A DNA stretch of 57,904 bases, from positions 1 through 57,904 of IMG/VR virus record IMGVR_UViG_3300030012_002820; one strand, written 5' to 3'. Below the pieces are notes generated by a model, which did no database searches, was not told where the DNA came from, and saw only the letters and a list, made by a program, of their open reading frames with translations. The stretch is from a virus (lineage: Duplodnaviria; Caudoviricetes). The translations under genes were made by a program, and so were the position numbers. Positions 16,578 to 56,500 of the stretch are shown here, in pieces. Numbering within the stretch: the first letter of the stretch is position 1; each line of letters begins with the position of its first letter.

Positions 16578-17060
16578 TTATATATCTTTACGTTTTTCAG
16601 CCTTTTCAAGAAAATGTGCAATAGTACCTGCTCCTCCTTCTGTATTATAATATTTTTTCCAATAATCTGCCATACCTTCTAAATCCATAGGTATTTTTTT
16701 AGGTACACGCCAATATTTAATTCTGCAAAATATTATACCTGCAAACATATTACCCCATAACAAATGTTTTAACCCTTCATCTGTTAAATCTAACAATCTA
16801 TCAGGTTCAATATGCATAATATCACATACTCTATTTAGCTTTTTTTCTCTATAAGAAAGATAATTTTCGATACAATCTTTTGCAGTAGCACTTTCTACTT
16901 GCCAAAAAGAACGAGCAATCCCTGAACCGATTTGATATATATAATCATATCCTGATTCTACCATACCTGTAAGGAATACTAACTCTTCAGATTCAGGGCT
17001 CCACATACCCATTTTTTCAAGAGTATCTTTAATTAAAGCTCTTATTTGTTTATGGTTCAT
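16578..17060 (-). CDS. putative endolysin (lysozyme-like fold)
   Basis: VESG...ARSFWQVE...YWKKYYNT.GGAGT; follows small membrane-protein genes. Confidence 0.6.
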   Translation of the reverse strand: MNHKQIRALIKDTLEKMGMWSPESEELVFLTGMVESGYDYIYQIGSGIARSFWQVESATAKDCIENYLSYREKKLNRVCDIMHIEPDRLLDLTDEGLKHLLWGNMFAGIIFCRIKYWRVPKKIPMDLEGMADYWKKYYNTEGGAGTIAHFLEKAEKRKDI

Positions 17061-17308
17061 TTAAAAATTTGCCATTTTAGATTTATAATCGCCTTTACGA
17101 CATCTAAAACTTCTTTCATGATTTTTTCTTTTTCAGCTTTAGTAATCTTTTTATCTCTGTTAGCATCTTCTAATGTTTTAACTACATCTTGCAGTTCTTT
17201 CATTATACTTCTATAACGAGTACTAACTAGAGTTAGACCACCTGCTAATAAAATCCCAATTAGATAAAAGAAATTTGTCCAACTGAGATAACCCATCAAA
17301 AAGTCCAT
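17057..17308 (-). CDS. holin-like membrane protein
   Basis: One N-terminal TM helix and a basic amphipathic C-terminus; adjacent to the endolysin. Confidence 0.5.
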   Translation of the reverse strand: MDFLMGYLSWTNFFYLIGILLAGGLTLVSTRYRSIMKELQDVVKTLEDANRDKKITKAEKEKIMKEVLDVVKAIINLKWQIFK

Positions 17309-38977: not shown

Positions 38978-39173
38978 CCTTTTTTCTTTTCAATTTTTCA
39001 TTTTCAACATATAACATATCAATAAGGTAAATAACTTTTGATGGGATTCTATACTCTTTTCCATCTATTTCTATAAACCCTATTTCATTATTCTTGTCCT
39101 CAGAAAGCTCTTTTAATGCCTTTACTTGGTCATCATAAGACTTTGTGAATAGACTTTCTAATAATTCAGACAT
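38967..39173 (-). CDS. hypothetical protein, first gene of the late operon
   Basis: ATG 5 nt after a -10 box; probably leaderless. Confidence 0.6.
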   Translation of the reverse strand: MSELLESLFTKSYDDQVKALKELSEDKNNEIGFIEIDGKEYRIPSKVIYLIDMLYVENEKLKRKKDGL

Positions 39174-39178
39174 AATAG

Positions 39179-39207
39179 AATCTATATACGCCCATGTTAT
39201 ATTTCAA
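39179..39207 (-). promoter_or_regulatory. sigma70-type promoter of the packaging/late operon
   Basis: TTGAAA-17 nt-TAGATT with an upstream T-tract (UP-like). Confidence 0.6.
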
Positions 39208-39227
39208 AATAAAAAAATAAAAAAATT

Positions 39228-39410
39228 TTAGGGATGCCAAGTAGCGATTTTATCTAAACACGCTTGAAGATTTTTAAAAGAAATTTTATTTTGATAAAAC
39301 GCTTCCATAACTTTATCTTTTTTTTCATTCGGAAGCCCATCCATTTCAATTTCCAATAGAACTTTGATAATCTTTTTCTCATTATGAGTCATCTCCTGTT
39401 CTATCGCCAT
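39228..39410 (-). CDS. hypothetical protein
   Basis: 60-aa ORF with AGGGA RBS. Confidence 0.5.
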   Translation of the reverse strand: MAIEQEMTHNEKKIIKVLLEIEMDGLPNEKKDKVMEAFYQNKISFKNLQACLDKIATWHP

Positions 39411-39664
39411 TTATCCCTGTTCTAGCAGTATTAATATATTAGTAGTACTAGCCTTCTATTCATCTTTTCCCACCACCACACCCTCAAAGGTAAAACTAAG
39501 TCAAGGTCAGAACCAAGAAAAAAAGTGCGAAAAAAAATTTTTCTAAAAAAAATGGACGTAAATGCAGTGCATAGTATATTCACACCCCATACCCTAAAAT
39601 GCGAGATTTGATTTATCAATTTTTCGTTATGTTTCGTTTTAAATTTAAACCTATGAGGATTATT

Positions 39665-39880
39665 ATGAACAACATGATTAGATTTCAACTCCATGGCAAG
39701 CAAGCTTTCACTATCTCTAATGAGCATGGTGAGGAGCACACTTCTTGGCAACCTACCACATTTCTATGTGCGTACGACACCAAAGCAAAGAAAGCCTTCT
39801 TTCTACGCAATGGTGGCACAGAGATTGGTAAGGAGATTGAGAATCTTCCTACAGAAACTGTTGAGTTTCTAACCAAGTAG
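39665..39880 (+). CDS. first early gene, 71 aa (start reassigned from 39599)
   Basis: GAGGA RBS before ATG 39665; more C/G-ending codons than the rest of the genome. Confidence 0.7.
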   Translation: MNNMIRFQLHGKQAFTISNEHGEEHTSWQPTTFLCAYDTKAKKAFFLRNGGTEIGKEIENLPTETVEFLTK

Positions 39881-39892
39881 AATGGATGGCAA

Positions 39893-39910
39893 ACCCCCCT
39901 TCGGGGGGGT
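39893..39910 (+). terminator. GC hairpin with cUUCGg tetraloop
   Basis: ACCCCCC-TTCG-GGGGGGT; no U-tract follows. Confidence 0.55.
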
Positions 39911-39967
39911 GCGTCTTAAAAAGAACGACATACATTTTTCACATACATACCATAGGAGATTACCAAT

Positions 39968-40090
39968 ATGAGTCTGCACTTTGACTTTCATAGCAAGATA
40001 TGGGTTGTAATAGTGAGTGGCACTTCACATCTACTATACTACTCAGTCTCACGTGCACAATGTATAGCTTATATGAATAACATGGGCTAA
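39968..40090 (+). CDS. 40-aa early peptide (not in ORF track)
   Basis: AGGAG RBS; MSLHFDFHSKIWVVIVSGTSHLLYYSVSRAQCIAYMNNMG. Confidence 0.6.
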   Translation: MSLHFDFHSKIWVVIVSGTSHLLYYSVSRAQCIAYMNNMG

Positions 40091-40190
40091 TAACATTAGT
40101 ACATATTAACACGTCTAACAAACGGAGTCTTTAGCGTGGCTTGGCAACAGAATGACGCTATTAATTAACCATTTAACAAGGAGAGAACTA

Positions 40191-40325
40191 ATGGCACAGA
40201 TTACCAAAATCATAAACAATATATCATTTTATTTATTATTCGGTTCAATATTTATACTTGGACTTATTTCAGGAATAGGACTAATTATTATATTAATTGA
40301 TGCTATTCAAAAGATTATAACATAA
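40191..40325 (+). CDS. 44-aa single-TM peptide (not in ORF track)
   Basis: AAGGAG RBS; FYLLFGSIFILGLISGIGLIIILI hydrophobic core. Confidence 0.65.
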   Translation: MAQITKIINNISFYLLFGSIFILGLISGIGLIIILIDAIQKIIT

Positions 40326-40362
40326 CTAGGAATCATTACTATTTAACTAAAGGATTAATATC

Positions 40363-40485
40363 ATGAAAGAATTATTTATAAAACTATATCACTGTTTTAT
40401 TTTCGTATCTTTATCAATGATAGCTGTGCTTGGCATAGCATCGTTTATCATACTAGTAACATCCTTAATACATAACAACATTTAA
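40363..40485 (+). CDS. 40-aa single-TM peptide (not in ORF track)
   Basis: AAGGA RBS; CFIFVSLSMIAVLGIASFIILVTSLI hydrophobic core. Confidence 0.6.
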   Translation: MKELFIKLYHCFIFVSLSMIAVLGIASFIILVTSLIHNNI

Positions 40486-40512
40486 CTGTCTTGTATTTGG
40501 TAATCTAGACAA

Positions 40513-40575
40513 TAAGCAGGTGTCTTTTATATCTATAATAATATGCTCTCTCCTTTAAGAGTAGATGCCTGCTTA
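40513..40575 (+). ncRNA. candidate structured RNA 1 (anti-SD loop)
   Basis: 13-bp closing stem UAAGCAGGUGUCU/AGAUGCCUGCUUA with 2 G-U pairs; inner hairpin GCUCU-CUCCUUUA-AGAGU. Confidence 0.6.
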
Positions 40576-40584
40576 AATTTTATA

Positions 40585-40797
40585 TTTGACTTGTGAGTAC
40601 GAACAATTCCTCGACATGGGAATAAGTACCATGCAGTGCAATAGGTTTGCAACCTTTAATAGACAATCAACGAGCAAGTGCTTGAGAGAGTCTTAGCACA
40701 ATTCATGATTAATAAACAAAAAACCAACTACAGTGTCATTGCTTTATTAATATACAGGTGGATAGACGTATCCAAAGTAGAGTCCTGTCAAGTCAAA
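40585..40797 (+). ncRNA. candidate multibranched RNA 2 (~213 nt)
   Basis: Closing UUUGACUUG/CAAGUCAAA; inner stems AUUCC/GGAAU, UGCAA/UUGCA, GUGCU/AGCAC, AUUAAUAAA/UUUAUUAAU, ACAGG/CCUGU and UGGAUA/UAUCCA. Confidence 0.6.
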
Positions 40798-40805
40798 AAT
40801 TTTAT

Positions 40806-40861
40806 ATTAAGTGAGTCACAAAACTACCTTAGTAAGACCGAAACTAAGCAAAGCACTTAAT
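40806..40861 (+). ncRNA. candidate small three-way-junction RNA 3
   Basis: Closing AUUAAGUG/CACUUAAU; inner CUUAGU/ACUAAG. Confidence 0.5.
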
Positions 40862-40863
40862 CA

Positions 40864-41076
40864 AAATGCTAAAGAGTAATTATAGATTACATATAAACTA
40901 GTTATGTTATTCCGCTCGTGTAGTTAGTTGCTACATAAACTACGAGTCACCGTAATATAGGTAGTCAGCAATGCATTGAACGTACTGCTGCTATATGGTA
41001 ATGTGTCGATAGTATTTTTATTGACATGTAATAGTCTAGAGCTGTTTAAAATACAAATATGCTTTCTTTAGCATTT
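40864..41076 (+). ncRNA. candidate multibranched RNA 4 (~213 nt)
   Basis: 12-bp closing AAAUGCUAAAGA/UCUUUAGCAUUU; inner GCUCGUG/UACGAGU, CAGCA/UGCUG and AUGUGUCGAUAG/UUAUUGACAUGU with G-U pairs. Confidence 0.62.
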
Positions 41077-41082
41077 AATTAT

Positions 41083-41173
41083 GTAAGGCTAGGTATTGTC
41101 AGTAAATCTAATAAAAGAGTAGTCTAGACTGAAAGCAAACTCTTGAAGATTTATGCTATGGCTCTAGCCTTGC
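41083..41173 (+). ncRNA. candidate RNA 5 (AGGCUAG/AUGGCUCUAGCCU motif, copy A)
   Basis: GUAAGGCUAGG/UCUAGCCUUGC closing stem; inner GUAAAUCU/AGAUUUAU and AAGAGU/ACUCUU; paralog at 42742. Confidence 0.7.
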
Positions 41174-41184
41174 TATATTTTAAT

Positions 41185-41262
41185 AGGGTGTAGACATAAC
41201 TAAAATAGTATTGATTAATTGGAGTATTAATTTCACAACCCATAATAATCAGTTTGCACCCT
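41185..41262 (+). ncRNA. candidate RNA 6
   Basis: AGGGUGUAGAC/GUUUGCACCCU, 11 bp with 2 G-U pairs. Confidence 0.55.
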
Positions 41263-41300
41263 TAGTATAATTTATTAAATAAAAAAGAGGAGCATATATT

Positions 41301-41489
41301 ATGCCTGATAAGTATGATATGGAGCTAGACGCACAACCAACTCTAGCAGAGATAAAATATCAATGTGAACATAAACATACCGAAAGAGCAGAATACTATT
41401 TTGGTAGAGATTATAGTAAAGACTATTTTTTCTATTGGATTTGTTCTAGCTGTGGTGAGGAAGTAGAGAGTGAACCTGATGAAGCGTAA
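41301..41489 (+). CDS. small Zn-binding-like protein
   Basis: GAGGAG RBS; CEH...CSSC. Confidence 0.65.
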   Translation: MPDKYDMELDAQPTLAEIKYQCEHKHTERAEYYFGRDYSKDYFFYWICSSCGEEVESEPDEA

Positions 41490-41592
41490 AGCATATTTAA
41501 GAAATAGGTCATTTACAAGTCAAGGCAGAGTAGGTGCATCAGAATTATTAATTAAAAAACTTATTAAAAAGTCAAAAAAGGAGATTAGAAAT

Positions 41593-41784
41593 ATGTCAGT
41601 GCAAGTAACAAAAGAGGATTTCTTACAATATAAAAGAGTCCAAGAAAGTGGTGAGTTTAATATGTTTGACCCATCAGCAAGAATGATGACAACTCTATCT
41701 AAAGAACAATGGGTGCATATTATGCAAAGTTATGAATCACTAAACAATGCTTGGGGCAAAGAAAATGATAAACCTGAAGAATGA
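41593..41784 (+). CDS. DUF5049-like small protein (start reassigned from 41470)
   Basis: AAGGAG RBS; VQESGEFNMFD motif. Confidence 0.55.
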   Translation: MSVQVTKEDFLQYKRVQESGEFNMFDPSARMMTTLSKEQWVHIMQSYESLNNAWGKENDKPEE

Positions 41785-41971
41785 AAAAATTGTAACATCT
41801 GTATTATCTAACGTATCTTATAAAGAGATAAAAAATAAATATCCTGATAAGATTGTTAGTGCATATACAGAAGGTCAAAGATTAGTATTAGTTTTAGATA
41901 AGTGCAGAATCAAATATGATGAAAGAATACCTCAAAAAGATGACAATGTATATGGTTCGATTCATAAATAA
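41765..41971 (+). CDS. hypothetical protein
   Basis: ORF-track ORF overlapping the upstream gene; start uncertain. Confidence 0.5.
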   Translation: MINLKNEKIVTSVLSNVSYKEIKNKYPDKIVSAYTEGQRLVLVLDKCRIKYDERIPQKDDNVYGSIHK

Positions 41972-42088
41972 ACTATTATTAATAAGATATGGTTGTCTGT
42001 TTGGTTGGATATTATGGTTGATGTTATGGTATATGCTTCCTGCCTTTGGACAAGAGCTTCCAATAAATTTTTAAGAAAGGGTAGTAAT

Positions 42089-42733
42089 ATGGGAATGGAT
42101 GTATATGGATTGAATCCAAAGAAAAGAGTTGAAAAAAGTCAAGAATTTAAAGACATATTAAGTAAATATGGTGAAAAGGTAGGAATGTTTTTAGATTGGA
42201 ATAAAAAAATACCTAAAGATGTTATGCATAGATATTATGACATAAAAGAACAATATGAGCAAGATAATCCAGGTATTTATTTTCGCAATAATGTATGGTG
42301 GTGGCGACCTCTATGGGATTATGTTTGTGTTGCTTGTTCTGATATTGTAACAGAAGAAGACCATAGACAAGGTCATAGTAATAGTGGTCGTAGAATATCT
42401 AAAACTAAATCTAAAAAAATAGCTGCTAGACTTAGAAAACTTGTTAAAGATGGCACAGTAAAAGATGCTGAGATAGTAAATGCAGAAATGCGTGGTGAAG
42501 CTATCAGACATAATACTAAAGTAGATGCTAGATTAGAACAACTACGTTTAGATATGATTAAAATGACAGGCGATAAAAATATTGCACCTAAAGATTATCC
42601 CAATAAGTATAGAAAGCAATGGGCTGATATTTATGGTGAAAGTAAAGGCATAGCTGATTATCCATTTAGTGAAGAGAATGTAATAAGATTTATTTCTTTT
42701 TGCGATGATAGTGGTGGATTTGAAATCTGTTAA
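42089..42733 (+). CDS. conserved-type phage hypothetical protein (start reassigned from 41993)
   Basis: MGMDVYG...GIYFRNNVWWWRPLW...YPF...F..F...SGGFEIC; RBS AAAGGG. Confidence 0.7.
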   Translation: MGMDVYGLNPKKRVEKSQEFKDILSKYGEKVGMFLDWNKKIPKDVMHRYYDIKEQYEQDNPGIYFRNNVWWWRPLWDYVCVACSDIVTEEDHRQGHSNSGRRISKTKSKKIAARLRKLVKDGTVKDAEIVNAEMRGEAIRHNTKVDARLEQLRLDMIKMTGDKNIAPKDYPNKYRKQWADIYGESKGIADYPFSEENVIRFISFCDDSGGFEIC

Positions 42734-42741
42734 TTAAAATT

Positions 42742-42819
42742 GTGAGGCTAGATATGGTATAGTCAATTACGGCTACAGATACTAGTCTTGGTAGAGTAAT
42801 GTTATGGCTCTAGCCTCAC
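42742..42819 (+). ncRNA. candidate RNA (AGGCUAG/AUGGCUCUAGCCU motif, copy B)
   Basis: Perfect 11-bp GUGAGGCUAGA/UCUAGCCUCAC stem filling the intergenic gap; covaries with 41083-41173. Confidence 0.7.
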
Positions 42820-42836
42820 TTTAACTTGAGGTTATA

Positions 42837-43169
42837 ATGGTTAAATTAATGCAACAAAGAGTAAAGAAATTACTTGCTTCTGAATCACGTTATCGTGTAT
42901 CTGATACTAATCTTATGGCAAGAGTATGGTATGATGATTTAGTAGCAAGAGGTAAAGATACATCAAATATGACTGCTACTGAGTTTTTAATTGAATTGCA
43001 AAAAGGCAATCTAACTAATTGGGAAACAGCTACAAGAGTTAGACGCAAACTGCAATCTAAACATAAAGAACTTCGTGATGATAAAGTATACAAAGGTAGA
43101 AAAGATGAAGAAGAACGTTGGAGAAATAGATTTTCACCTAATGTATATCAAGTTCAGCGATTAAAATAA
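42837..43169 (+). CDS. hypothetical protein
   Basis: GAGG RBS; R.SD..L...VW...E...RVRRKLQ pattern. Confidence 0.7.
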   Translation: MVKLMQQRVKKLLASESRYRVSDTNLMARVWYDDLVARGKDTSNMTATEFLIELQKGNLTNWETATRVRRKLQSKHKELRDDKVYKGRKDEEERWRNRFSPNVYQVQRLK

Positions 43170-52675: not shown

Positions 52676-55600
52676 CTACTCATCCTCGGTTAGTAACTCA
52701 TAACCTGTTACTCCTAATTGCAGTACATAGCTGAGTAAAACGGGCAGTAGTAGAAATTTAAGGGCGTTGCCTATTTCTCCTAGTGCCCCATCAGCTTCTT
52801 CATCATCATTCATAGCAAGAATAGAAGTCCAAAGACCCATTCTAAAAGCAAATCCTAAAGCAGGACTTTCAGCACTTCTTATCATTCCAAAACCTGTACT
52901 ACCTGTATTTCTTAACATTCTTCCCAAAAAAGGAACAACACTTATTAAACTTCCAACAGCACTTGCCATAACTCTTGTAAATAAAAACCTTGCCATAGCT
53001 ATAGCTTCATGGTCAACATTTTTTGCTTTAGGGTCATATTTTTTATTTTTATCTTGAACAACAGATTGTTTAACTATACTACCAATAGCATTTGCTATTC
53101 TTACCATACCATCAGCAGCACTATTATTTCCATCAGTAAATTTTTTAAATGTTTGCCAATCATAAATACTTTGTAAAGTTGGATATTGCTTATATTGAAA
53201 TATTAATCTACCAAATCCATTAAAACCTTCACCAAGATACATAGGAGTCATACCAAATTGAGTATTATATACAGCATCTCTTCCAATTTTTTTAGCTAAT
53301 TTACTATTTAAATCTTGAAAATCTCCATTTTGCAAATCTTCCATTGTTCCAGGCAATATTCCTCTTTTTTGTGCATCTATTAAAGCCATTAATACAGTCA
53401 TACTTCTTAGTGTTTTTTCACCTTCTGTAAAAGTAAATATTTCTTTTCCTGGTCCACCTATTTCATCAAACCACCAACTTAATTTCCAAGTTACCCATTT
53501 TTTTATTTTAGCTTCAGTCATATTACCCATTAAAGCTCTAACTCTATTTTCAACCATTTCATAACTTTGGTCTTTTGTTAACCCATAAAAATCAAATAAA
53601 GCTCCTCTTTTTTCTGCTAATGCTGCTTTATCAATTTTACCTTTAAGTTTTCTTAGTTCCTGTAATTCTCTTATAGATGCTCTAGTCGCTCCTTGTTGCC
53701 TCATTTCCATTTTTATTAAAAACTCATCAGCCCAATCAGCTCCTTCTTTAACAAATTTTTCTCTACCTGCTTTACCTGCTTTTAATAAATCACGAAATTG
53801 TTTTAATTGAATAGGGTTTGGAGTACTTCCAAAAAATGGTACAAACAAAAAATCATTCCATTTTGCATCACCATCTATATTCATTATATCTGAAAATTGA
53901 TTTAAAACATTTAATACACCTGTATTTTCAACAATTTTATCCATCTGTGTTCTAAATTTTTGTCTTAATTTATAAGCATCTAAAGCAGTACCAAAACCTA
54001 CTTGTATAATTTCGTTAACAATTTGTGTTTGGTTCCCTAATGCAGGTTCAGCACCTAAATATCTTATTGTTGATGGAGTTGTAAACCATTTTGTCATTCT
54101 TTCTGCTGATTGTGCATCATGTGTAACCCCACCTCTCATCCAATTTGGTAAACTATTCATCCATTTAGCTGTTTGTTCATATCCTGTTTTCCCACCATAA
54201 AAAGTCATAGCTCTAGTATCAGAATCACCCATAGCTAATTTAATTCTATTAGATAAATATTCTATTGTACCTCCAGGAGTTTTTACATCTTCTAATACAC
54301 TAATTGCTTTTAAAGTCTCTACTATAACTTGATTTCTATGTATGTTTCTATACATATGATTTAAATAATCTTTATATATACCTGCGTCTTTTCTCCTACC
54401 TACTTGATTTGTCCAACCCGTTATATGTTTTAAATATGGGTTAGCCAACATATCTACCATAGCACTTCCATCTCTATTTTCACCCATTGAAGCAAGTATG
54501 CTAACTAAATTTTGTTTTCCTTCTGTAAGTCTAGCTATTCTATTTTCATCTTTTGTTTCTTCTGTTAGCTTAGTATCAATAGCTTCTATTTGTTTCATCA
54601 ATTGTTCTTGTATAGCAGGATAACTATATAAGTGAGGAACATAATTTTCTTTTTTCATTTTAGCATAAGTAGTAGATGTTCTTAACTCTCCTGTGCTTTC
54701 ATCAAACCAAACTCTACTTTCAACACCACCTATATCTATAATTTTTTTTATTTTAGTAGATATTTCTTCCTCACTTAAACCTGCTCTTCGATATTTTGAT
54801 ATTAATTTATTTTGTAATTTTTGTCTTTCGTTTTCTATTTTTCTTGCTTTATATGAAGCATCATCATAAACAAGTTTTAATTGTTTTCTAATTTCTGATA
54901 CTAAAGACCATACAGATTCCATCAATTCTTTTGGTGGCTGATTTTCTATTTTTTCAAAATTAACATATTGTTTAGTATGTGTTCCATCTATAGGGTCGCC
55001 TTTTTTATATTTTTTACCAGTTTTAGGTGCTATCCTTCTTCCAAAATCATTTATTTCTGTAGACCTATAGTATACTCCATCTTGACCTTCTTCTCTTCCA
55101 AATACTTTATCTACTTCTGCTTGTGTATAATCTTGTGATGTTGATTCTACTTCACCATCTATAAGTTTTATTGTTTTGCCTATATAATTTAGTCTTGTTC
55201 CTTCTACAGGTGTACCCATATCTCCTAATTGAACTTTATCTATTAAGTAAGCTTTATAACTTTCTACTTCTGAAGCTGCTCCTGATTCAGTTCTAATATT
55301 AGCACCTTCACCTTGCTTAATCATTACATATCTATATTTAAATTGTTTTAATCCATCTGTTCTTACTATAGTGTGAATACCTGCTACTCTATTTCCATTT
55401 GAATCTTCATCTTCACTTACTGTAGAATCTTTTGATTTAAACATTTCATATATTTTACGTTTTAAAAAAAGATAATCACTATCTTTCTCTTTTGGTGAAA
55501 TATTAGTTATAGGCTTTACACCTGCTTCATCTTCAATTGTATCTATTTTTTTATTTATAACAGAAGGTACAATTAATCTAGTTTGACCATCTAATATTTC

Positions 55601-56500
55601 ATTAGGAAGTTCATCTCTATATAAACCAATAATAGCTCTTTCTATATCATTATCACTTGCGTTTACTTCTTCTCTTGGTACATTTTTTATAGTTCCATCA
55701 CTGTATTTTACTTTATAATGCTGTACATTGTTAATAATAGTTTCTCCAACCAAAACAACATCTTCATCGCTATCTACTAACCTAAATGGTACATAATTCT
55801 CTTCACTTAAACCCCAAATAGAAACATTATTTAAATTAAATCTTGAACCCATGCTTCTAATTGCTGATGTCCAACCATTAGTAAAATTTTCACGAGCATT
55901 TGATATAGGAGTAGAATATTTACTTGTAATAGAAATATCTCTATCGCTTAATCTTAAAGCTTTGTTAATAAGGGCTTGTATAATACCATATTTATCTGCT
56001 TTTGTAGCAACAAATTCAGGAGGAGAGCCCCAAATATCTATTGCTGGAATCTTACCACTTTTAAGCCATTTTTCTCTTTGCCTTATTCGTCTTACTACAA
56101 GTTTTTGTGTTGCTTTAGCAGTACGCTGACCTTGTCTTATTGTTATAGGATTTATTTCTCCTCGTAAATTTTTAGCAAAACTTAAATTCCAATCTTGTGC
56201 CATTTGAGTTGGTGTTGTTATTTCAGGACTGTAGTTTATTTCTCTTCCTGTTTGCAACATATCTCCAACAAGTGTATCAAACAGCTCACTATGTTCTTTA
56301 TATTGCAATTGTGCCATTTTTAATTTTCTTTTATTGGCTAAAGTCTTACTTTGGTTGTAAGCTTTTTGAGCAGCTTTTACAATACCCAAAGATTTATAAC
56401 CAATTAAATCAGCAACAGCATTATTACATTCAGCTCTCCAACGATTTATATGCATAGCGTCATGAACAGAAGCTGCGGTCATAGCTTTTTTACAACTCAT
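52676..56500 (-). CDS. large internal virion/ejection protein, 1274 aa
   Basis: ATGA-coupled to the giant protein; NYVPH, NTQF...LIFQYKQYP and hydrophobic C-terminal helices. Confidence 0.65.
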   Translation of the reverse strand: MSCKKAMTAASVHDAMHINRWRAECNNAVADLIGYKSLGIVKAAQKAYNQSKTLANKRKLKMAQLQYKEHSELFDTLVGDMLQTGREINYSPEITTPTQMAQDWNLSFAKNLRGEINPITIRQGQRTAKATQKLVVRRIRQREKWLKSGKIPAIDIWGSPPEFVATKADKYGIIQALINKALRLSDRDISITSKYSTPISNARENFTNGWTSAIRSMGSRFNLNNVSIWGLSEENYVPFRLVDSDEDVVLVGETIINNVQHYKVKYSDGTIKNVPREEVNASDNDIERAIIGLYRDELPNEILDGQTRLIVPSVINKKIDTIEDEAGVKPITNISPKEKDSDYLFLKRKIYEMFKSKDSTVSEDEDSNGNRVAGIHTIVRTDGLKQFKYRYVMIKQGEGANIRTESGAASEVESYKAYLIDKVQLGDMGTPVEGTRLNYIGKTIKLIDGEVESTSQDYTQAEVDKVFGREEGQDGVYYRSTEINDFGRRIAPKTGKKYKKGDPIDGTHTKQYVNFEKIENQPPKELMESVWSLVSEIRKQLKLVYDDASYKARKIENERQKLQNKLISKYRRAGLSEEEISTKIKKIIDIGGVESRVWFDESTGELRTSTTYAKMKKENYVPHLYSYPAIQEQLMKQIEAIDTKLTEETKDENRIARLTEGKQNLVSILASMGENRDGSAMVDMLANPYLKHITGWTNQVGRRKDAGIYKDYLNHMYRNIHRNQVIVETLKAISVLEDVKTPGGTIEYLSNRIKLAMGDSDTRAMTFYGGKTGYEQTAKWMNSLPNWMRGGVTHDAQSAERMTKWFTTPSTIRYLGAEPALGNQTQIVNEIIQVGFGTALDAYKLRQKFRTQMDKIVENTGVLNVLNQFSDIMNIDGDAKWNDFLFVPFFGSTPNPIQLKQFRDLLKAGKAGREKFVKEGADWADEFLIKMEMRQQGATRASIRELQELRKLKGKIDKAALAEKRGALFDFYGLTKDQSYEMVENRVRALMGNMTEAKIKKWVTWKLSWWFDEIGGPGKEIFTFTEGEKTLRSMTVLMALIDAQKRGILPGTMEDLQNGDFQDLNSKLAKKIGRDAVYNTQFGMTPMYLGEGFNGFGRLIFQYKQYPTLQSIYDWQTFKKFTDGNNSAADGMVRIANAIGSIVKQSVVQDKNKKYDPKAKNVDHEAIAMARFLFTRVMASAVGSLISVVPFLGRMLRNTGSTGFGMIRSAESPALGFAFRMGLWTSILAMNDDEEADGALGEIGNALKFLLLPVLLSYVLQLGVTGYELLTEDE

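Follow-up and report, generated by a model that had tools for sequence, protein, structure and literature searches.

A probable island of processed non-coding RNAs in the tRNA-Met/GOLLD slot of a marine tailed phage

We think that positions 40486-41300 of the DNA analysed here are probably an island of stable, processed non-coding RNAs (ncRNAs), made from the + (early) strand and lying in a slot which in related phages holds tRNA-Met, the large phage RNA GOLLD or other structured RNAs. The window (the whole stretch of DNA that was analysed) is a complete IMG/VR virus record, as rated there, of 57,904 nucleotides (nt), and its source is a marine tailed phage of ~58 kb. The stretch is non-coding, and its units fold independently and have closing helices of 8-13 bp; units 1, 2, 4, 5 and 6 are conserved on the + strand with compensatory changes; units are exchanged as modules between close relatives; and units 2 and 4 occur in ocean RNA as discrete, about unit-sized contigs, unlike the flanking genes. 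The units, with z-scores and numbers of equally good folds that for units 1 to 6 are taken against 200 shuffles, are the following:

40487-40511, + strand: "unit 0", a small hairpin with the conserved loop TGGTAATC, always just 5' of unit 1
40513-40575, + strand: unit 1, a hairpin RNA of 63 nt closed by a 13-bp helix, -20.0 kcal/mol, z -4.39, 0/200 shuffles as good
40585-40797, + strand: unit 2, a multi-helix RNA of 213 nt, closed by a 9-bp helix and with 11 consensus helices, -50.5 kcal/mol, z -2.46, 4/200
40806-40861, + strand: unit 3, a 56-nt stem-closed element (8 bp), -7.9 kcal/mol, z -1.97, 10/200, weak
40864-41076, + strand: unit 4, a 213-nt RNA with a 12-bp closing helix, -59.8 kcal/mol, z -4.42, 0/200
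41083-41173, + strand: unit 5, a 91-nt RNA, conserved at its base (helix and internal loop) and variable at its top, -27.6 kcal/mol, z -3.19, 1/200
41185-41262, + strand: unit 6, a 78-nt RNA whose 11-bp closing helix has two G-U pairs, -20.7 kcal/mol, z -3.95, 0/200
42742-42819, + strand: a second element of the unit-5 type, between two early genes, -30.8 kcal/mol, z -4.09

An initial annotation, made from the letters of the sequence alone, had placed six stem-closed units at these positions, and the folding agrees with it: units 1 to 6 have z-scores from -1.97 to -4.42 on the + strand, with unit 3 weak, and units 1, 4 and 6 fold better than any of their shuffles. Its assignment of the structure to the + (early) strand is likewise upheld, as the whole stretch 40487-41300 reaches -203.1 kcal/mol (z -4.94) on the + strand versus -179.9 kcal/mol (z -3.07) on the - strand (20 shuffles per strand), and the - strand folds, made for the four short units, are all weaker (z -2.90, -0.66, -2.71 and -2.38). 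When the stretch is folded without constraint, units 1, 2, 5 and 6 appear as drawn, the closing helix of unit 4 competes with other pairings, and the global fold contains some long-range pairs. In a span-limited fold the 3' arm region of unit 4 (41057-41070) can also pair, through an 8-bp outer helix, with the ribosome-binding site (RBS; 41284-41297) of the gene that starts at 41301, a pairing that may be due to chance. As a background control, 46 windows of 200 nt gave a mean z of -0.21 (standard deviation, sd, 1.17) on the + strand, and none of the eight other gaps of the genome that are poor in open reading frames (ORFs) reaches z -3 on either strand, which argues that strong folding is not a general property of the non-coding DNA of this genome.

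None of four genetic codes (code 11, code 4, TAG read as Q, TAA read as Q) yields a credible ORF between the end of a 40-aa ORF (40485) and the gene start at 41301, in line with the annotated absence of genes from about 790 bp; the longest frame, of 60 aa with a GTG start (40678-40860), crosses units 2 and 3. Known RNAs are missing as well. ARAGORN finds 0 tRNAs in the window, and no cloverleaf with an anticodon is recognised there by ARAGORN or by the Rfam tRNA model; no Rfam family matches at its gathering score in the window, and only chance-level matches appear at E<=10 over 39200-41400. The GOLLD model (RF02032, gathering score 150 bits) has no match in the window and none at E<=10 either over 39200-41400 or genome-wide, and the ROOL model, which is also in Rfam, has no match in the window. 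The region 39300-41400 is rich in inverted repeats and contains no direct-repeat family or iterons beyond short two-copy matches. Units 1 to 6 share no sequence with each other, and each is single-copy in the 57.9 kb except unit 5, which has two copies (both +). A CRISPR or tandem repeat array is ruled out by the lack of regular direct repeats and of sequence shared between units, and a tRNA gene cluster by the 0 tRNAs of ARAGORN and Rfam, both as had been anticipated.

The related loci used for comparison (denoted by L numbers) come from IMG/VR and from metagenomes, and were found via the small-terminase-like protein and neighbouring proteins. Unit 2 has homologues in L091, L101/L100 and L165/L166. 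In an alignment of four sequences, 97.5% of the cells of its 71 predicted pairs are paired and 16 pairs are changed on both sides, as compared with 6.9 (sd 1.8) in shuffles, of which 0/500 are as high, and with 0-3 in slid-partner controls; the RNA-level structure proposed in the initial annotation is thus matched by covariation. The consensus energy of this unit is -65.6 kcal/mol on the + strand versus -40.8 kcal/mol on the - strand. The sole relative of unit 4 (L164:569-781(-)) is 93% identical, with 14 substitutions: four of them make up two compensatory pairs, five are single wobble-compatible changes (G-U versus A-U/G-C), three are unpaired and two break one terminal pair, so that pairing is kept in 9 of the 11 stem substitutions.

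The smaller units behave in a similar manner. All eight members of the unit 1 family (window, L164, L083, L165, L167, L084, L091 and L101) fold with closing helices of 8-15 bp, which have at least five different sequences, and all eight carry a conserved (C)UCUCCUUUAG in the inner loop; the inner hairpin of unit 1 shows CUCUCCUUUA in its loop, 3 of the 9 stem pairs are compensatory among four sequences, and the unit always has a small ORF before it and an A/U-rich run after it. Just 5' of it, the loop of unit 0 is kept on different stems (GTCTTG/CTAGAC, GTCTT/AAGAC, TCTC/GAGA, TCAC/GTGA) in the window, L164, L083, L165 and L084, and the loop itself was also read in the sequence of L101. Relatives of unit 6 (L165:2669-2734, L167:2064-2129 and L084:3544-3607) have closing helices of 10-11 bp with z of -3.3 to -4.9, their stems differ in a compensating way (TG/CA, TT/AA, C/G, T.G), and in the window and in L084 the unit stands directly before the RBS of the next gene. 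The base of unit 5 (helix and internal loop) recurs in L161:2054-2183 (130 nt) and in the window copy at 42742-42819, whose closing stem, GTGAGGCTAGA/CTCTAGCCTCAC, shows an A-U to G-C change relative to that of unit 5, GTAAGGCTAG/CTCTAGCCTTGC. In L165, a match to the 3' arm of the 42742-42819 element lies between the corresponding ORFs. L164 has a copy of unit 3 that is identical at 56/56 positions and again adjoins unit 4 on its 5' side. For units 1 and 6, whose MAFFT alignments had lost register and gave uninformative consensus folds, the sequences were folded singly.

Exact-pattern scans of IMG/VR returned three contigs for unit 2 and one for unit 5 (all already in the set) and none for unit 4. 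In one genome each of 185,579 species the patterns of unit 2 had 0 matches and those of unit 4 only three chance matches of 18-20 nt. A covariance model of unit 2 recovered, in 100 sources, the known copies and a single 12-bit chance match; it did not match unit 4, from which we conclude that the two 213-nt RNAs are not homologous.

Evidence at the RNA level comes from the ocean. A search listed five metatranscriptome runs containing part of the stretch, as well as DNA runs with 0.4-0.7 of its words; four of the metatranscriptome runs (three from one study, one from another) were compared with 39000-42900. In all four, the only pieces longer than 35 nt on this interval are seven contigs of 163-272 nt with 0 mismatches, all of them on unit 2 (40610-40799, 40620-40787, 40611-40773 and 40584-40758) or on unit 4 (40862-41133, 40862-41078 and 40860-41082), and in each contig all but 0-7 letters align to the window. 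Six of the seven stay on one of these two units, reach no more than 6 nt into a linker and have their ends near the unit borders, so that the assembled molecules appear to be about unit-sized; the seventh (40862-41133) runs 57 nt past unit 4 and 51 nt into unit 5. The other pieces are low-complexity ones of 31-35 nt at 39518-39552 and one of 33 nt at 42277. The word shares of the four runs (0.54, 0.47, 0.46 and 0.21) match units 2 and 4 together or unit 2 alone. No contig of these runs covers unit 3 or joins unit 2 to unit 4 (such gaps are weak evidence), and the stretches that have no contigs (units 1, 3 and 6 and the flanking genes) are not to be read as absent; DNA carry-over, for its part, ought to show up on the flanking genes as well. 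The cassette of several discrete RNAs that the initial annotation had envisaged is supported in part: it fits the contigs, confined to units 2 and 4 but for 51 nt of unit 5, and the covariation.

The units are separated by short AU-rich linkers of 9, 8, 2, 6 and 11 nt, within the 2-11 nt first noted for them, and one linker sequence is indeed used twice:

40575-40586, + strand: linker AAATTTTATATT, copy 1, AU-rich, 12 nt
40797-40808, + strand: linker AAATTTTATATT, copy 2, AU-rich, an exact copy

These are its only two exact occurrences in 57.9 kb, one on each side of unit 2 (with one mismatch allowed there are 10 matches, which is within chance). Related linkers, AATTTTTTATAC, AAATTTTTATAT and TAATTTTATAT, lie between the units of L165, where TAATTTTATAT abuts the 5' end of a tRNA-Met; the L091 copy of unit 2 has no flanking direct repeat.

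The relatives also show what kind of place this is. The corresponding interval is ORF-poor for 500-1200 nt. In 5 of 22 loci ARAGORN finds an early-strand tRNA-Met there, and 9 of 16 and 3 of 20 loci have matches to the tRNA model of Rfam. GOLLD is found in 3 of 16 loci at 192-205 bits (L095:1685-2115(-), L003:3332-3746(+), L086:942-1373(-)) and in 2 of 20 at 178-186 bits (L172:29-450(-), L009:3279-3696(+), the latter from a more distant phage); it lies downstream of a tRNA-Met-like gene in L095, L003, L086 and L172, and no tRNA was found in L009. This phage clade may be a natural source of the marine GOLLD RNAs. The order in L165 is unit 1, a 12-nt linker, unit 6, a 12-nt linker, unit 2, an 11-nt linker, tRNA-Met and a gene for a phosphatase of the PNKP type, and that in L164, whose terminase-like protein terS is 98% identical, is 3-4-X1-X2-40-aa ORF-1-X3-6, with the homologue of the 40-aa ORF (40363-40485) in the middle of the array and thus at another position relative to the units. 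Such differences of order between close relatives indicate that the units are modules which are gained, lost and rearranged quickly. The stand-alone PNKP-type polynucleotide phosphatase gene of L084 (L084:3047-3517(-), Pfam PF25109, E 3e-44) comes directly after the ncRNA/tRNA array, and homologues, recognised by DNA likeness to it, are present in L083, L091, L095, L098, L101 and L165. The "undescribed system" of the initial annotation was therefore an overstatement, the slot being the tRNA-Met/GOLLD island of this clade, a known kind of locus.

A further conserved structured stretch of ~370 nt, with GNRA-type loops, lies 5' of tRNA-Met in L084 (early-direction 1940-2310) and in L167, and is common to L171 and L195. 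It has no Rfam match at E<=1 in L084 and L167 or at gathering score in L171 and L195, and is a candidate for another large RNA in the same slot.

In the scheme that we favour for the island of processed ncRNAs, the units would be transcribed with the early genes as one precursor, host endonucleases would cut in or beside the single-stranded AU-rich linkers, and the closing helices would shield the ends so that the units could accumulate as stable RNAs. Processing of the RNase E/P/III type, as in tRNA and rRNA operons, is likely because related linkers flank an embedded tRNA in relatives, and this tRNA must itself be cut free; cleavage at the AU linkers and expression immediately after injection, both part of the initial annotation, are inferences. 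As for function, our suggestion that the units act in trans in host takeover, on the side of translation and tRNA, is a tentative one, based on the slot partners (tRNA-Met and GOLLD), the end-healing phosphatase gene that adjoins the slot in relatives, and the loop of unit 1. This loop resembles the Shine-Dalgarno-binding 3' end of 16S rRNA, and it is complementary to phage ribosome-binding sites, for example CTAAAGGA before 40363. Units 0, 1, 5 and 6 may serve the mRNA in cis, instead or as well. It is also conceivable, though we put this forward with much reserve, that the GOLLD/tRNA slot is a fast-evolving cassette site in which unrelated, highly expressed structured RNAs are swapped like anti-defence genes, the RNAs of the array being stand-ins for GOLLD; they would then form self-assembling RNA particles, or serve as decoys blunting host attack on tRNAs, ribosomes or mRNA start sites.

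Several points weigh against the island of processed RNAs and should be stated together. Our scans identified no processing enzyme, promoter or terminator for the array. RNA was seen for only two of the six units; the small ones may be absent, or may have dropped out when the libraries were selected for size, a step that usually removes RNAs of less than ~100 nt and may explain why they are missing. The runs were picked because they contain words of the array stretch, and the Logan contigs show neither the ends, the strand nor the level of the RNA. Homologues are few (2 to 8 per unit, some of them closely related), too few for a statistic of the R-scape type, and the structures of the units were derived from the same alignments that were used to test them. 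Unit 3 is weak (z -1.97), and its sole copy elsewhere is identical. A coding window, 17101-17300 (-), has a z of -5.98 against 15 shuffles, and of -4.09 in a second fold against 200, so that z-scores alone are not decisive and the case rests on the covariation and on the RNA contigs. Finally, searches of the window gave no tRNA, GOLLD, PNKP gene or RNA ligase, and the functional theme is for this reason borrowed from the relatives.

Other explanations have to be considered in the light of the same data. The whole ~800 nt could be one giant multi-domain RNA of the GOLLD kind, with the six units as its domains: it occupies the slot of GOLLD in relatives, its length is near the ~800 nt of GOLLD as given in a report on the solved RNA (10.1101/2024.12.08.627333), one contig extends from unit 4 by 51 nt into unit 5, and there are those long-range pairs in the global fold. 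We nevertheless hold this to be improbable, because GOLLD is not matched even at E<=10, no conserved long-range helix surrounds the units, no contig in the four runs is on unit 3 or joins units 2 and 4 (weak evidence, as said), and the units occur in close relatives in other orders and combinations that a single folded RNA would hardly tolerate. Alternatively, the units might act in cis on the early mRNA, as sites of processing, hairpins that stabilise its ends, attenuators or terminators, with units 2 and 4 as stable by-products. The second unit-5 type element between two early genes at 42742-42819, the place of unit 6 directly before an RBS in the window and L084, that of unit 1 between a small ORF and an A/U-rich run, and the alternative pairing of 41057-41070 with the RBS at 41284-41297 would all fit such a role; this is in our opinion unlikely for the array as such, since known processing or terminator signals are far simpler than two covarying RNAs of 213 nt and 11 helices, the position of units varies without regard to the genes beside them, and no terminator was found inside 40487-41300 (the only intrinsic terminator in a scan of 39000-41800 is at 40423-40439, outside the array).

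The closing stems are also similar in appearance to terminal inverted repeats, near-identical phages differ in the modules that they have, unit 5 is in two copies, and the 12-nt AAATTTTATATT on both sides of unit 2 is reminiscent of a target duplication, all of which would suit selfish mobile elements, similar to MITEs (miniature transposable elements with inverted repeats), that have piled up in a permissive spot with no role for the phage. Against this, five of the six units are single-copy in the genome, slot and orientation are always the same, the internal helices covary and not the termini alone, wobble-compatible changes fit an RNA on one strand, unit 2 of L091 lacks the flanking direct repeat and no transposase is near the array, so that we consider it quite improbable. 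An element acting at the level of DNA (an origin of replication, a site for packaging or a series of promoter hairpins) could be imagined from the position near the strand-bias switch of the two genome arms, where the cumulative GC skew has its minimum (~40-41 kb), and from the many inverted repeats; N4-type phages do use DNA hairpins as early promoters. It would not explain why the + strand folds markedly better, via G-U pairs and wobble-compatible substitutions, or why unit-sized RNA contigs exist, and there are no iterons or direct-repeat families, the GC of the stretch is not below that of the genome and promoter-like sites are not enriched (12 found versus 15.2 expected); we give this explanation hardly any credence. 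The island of stable, processed ncRNAs thus remains the reading that we prefer.

The array is bounded by small early genes:

40191-40325, + strand: a tiny hydrophobic ORF of 44 aa with a ribosome-binding site
40363-40485, + strand: an ORF for a predicted membrane peptide of 40 aa, which bounds the array on its 5' side; it belongs to no Pfam family and has the RBS CTAAAGGA before 40363
41301-41489, + strand: the first protein gene after the array, 62 aa, with the strong RBS AAGAGGAG; its homologues lie 3' of the arrays of relatives

With those at 39665-39880 and 39968-40090, the first two make up four small + strand ORFs with ribosome-binding sites that precede the array, which is consequently not at the very start of the early arm as had been stated initially. 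Directly after the 71-aa early ORF (39665-39880) there is a GC-rich hairpin, CCCCCCTTCGGGGGG, at 39891-39908 (+), which is terminator-like and lacks a U run. Between the divergent late and early arms, the intergenic region 39411-39664 has ~77% DNA identity in relatives and contains long A and T runs; it is probably the early promoter region, and is not notably structured (z -0.22 on the + strand, +1.01 on the - strand).

More generally, the genome (G+C ~31%) has two divergent arms, with the cumulative GC skew minimum near the switch between them. The - strand arm (1-39410) carries portal, large terminase and small-terminase-like genes, and the + strand arm, from ~39600, small ORFs, a Cas4-like nuclease, a DnaB-type helicase, a methylase and a resolvase. 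The large terminase is ~24% identical to those of N4-like phages, and a blastn search with 39400-41300 among 50,697 phage records found nothing, so that no cultured relative matches this region at the DNA level. A giant - strand ORF (6728->1) continues in frame at 57903->56497 and encodes ~2711 aa; as it spans both ends of the record, the latter is circularly permuted. The coupling of the array to a virion RNA polymerase, proposed in the initial annotation, found no backing in this ORF, where no polymerase domain was detected: it has no match in Pfam, PHROG or PDB sequences, and PF00940 was not found in the genome by a search whose controls gave no match either. The nearest Atlas clusters by protein-language features carry LPD "polyvalent protein" domains (score 0.90), and a resemblance to phage "polyvalent" proteins is to be taken as a lead only. 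The next ORF (52676-56500, 1274 aa) has no family assigned. Elsewhere on the - strand, the mRNA of an 83-aa membrane-protein gene (17057-17308) is unusually well folded (z -4.09, 200 shuffles).

Such an array, or the exchange of GOLLD for other RNAs, was not found described in the literature searched (the supplements of a csRNA catalogue with 10,006 motifs, PMC10690425, may list some of those found here). GOLLD and ROOL are among the largest RNAs of bacteria and phages and their function is still unexplained; if the stand-in idea were true, the GOLLD class would gain natural "replacement" partners with which its function could be tested. A single early-gene slot in a clade of ocean phages contains either GOLLD with tRNA-Met or quite different structured RNAs, even close relatives differing in this respect, and such a natural swap suggests that the RNAs of the slot have a common purpose, dispensable but selected. 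The two new 213-nt RNAs appear to accumulate in the sea and are small enough for studies of structure and binding, and the presence or absence of units across phage strains could be compared with host range. The abundant unassigned small RNAs of marine metatranscriptomes can stem from phage non-coding islands of this type.

Among known systems, the tRNA cluster of T4 with its stable RNAs C and D, a row cut from a common precursor in which paired ends close each product, resembles the array in having closed units in a row; it is dominated by tRNAs, of which the window has none, and its processing has a counterpart here that we only infer. The early transcript of T7 with its RNase III sites, and rRNAs with their flanking stems, offer another comparison: conserved hairpins with internal loops between the parts of polycistronic transcripts. 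An element of the unit-5 type, whose base is conserved and top variable and which recurs between two genes, resembles such sites, whereas units 2 and 4 far exceed processing signals of this kind in size. MITEs share with the units their small size, terminal inverted repeats and presence or absence in close relatives, and differ from them in that the units are single copy, have a fixed slot and orientation and have covarying internal helices. In the N4-like phage LUZ7, one report describes a cluster of putative small RNAs (sRNAs) of <250 nt in one intergenic region, some of them probably processed (PMC9163698); these are late transcripts between orf69 and orf70, without sequence relation to the array by blastn of 39400-41300. 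ROOL, the ~800-nt RNA of ICP1 and the long ncRNAs of phage K come from ORF-less stretches of ~1 kb near tRNAs and are among the most abundant phage transcripts (PMC7567579, PMC9241854); they are described as single long RNAs, and were compared with the window through Rfam only. The closest parallel in kind and place is with GOLLD (RF02032) itself, whose solved representative comes from a marine metagenome and lies downstream of a Met-tRNA, GOLLD and ROOL both being near phage tRNA islands (10.1101/2024.12.08.627333). Like the array, GOLLD is phage-encoded, free of ORFs over ~800 nt, highly structured and, in relatives, located in the same slot, which in many of them holds tRNA-Met. The window itself has no tRNA and no match to the model, and holds several small, closed and recombining units whose RNA contigs are about unit-sized, although contigs would not rule out a longer form.

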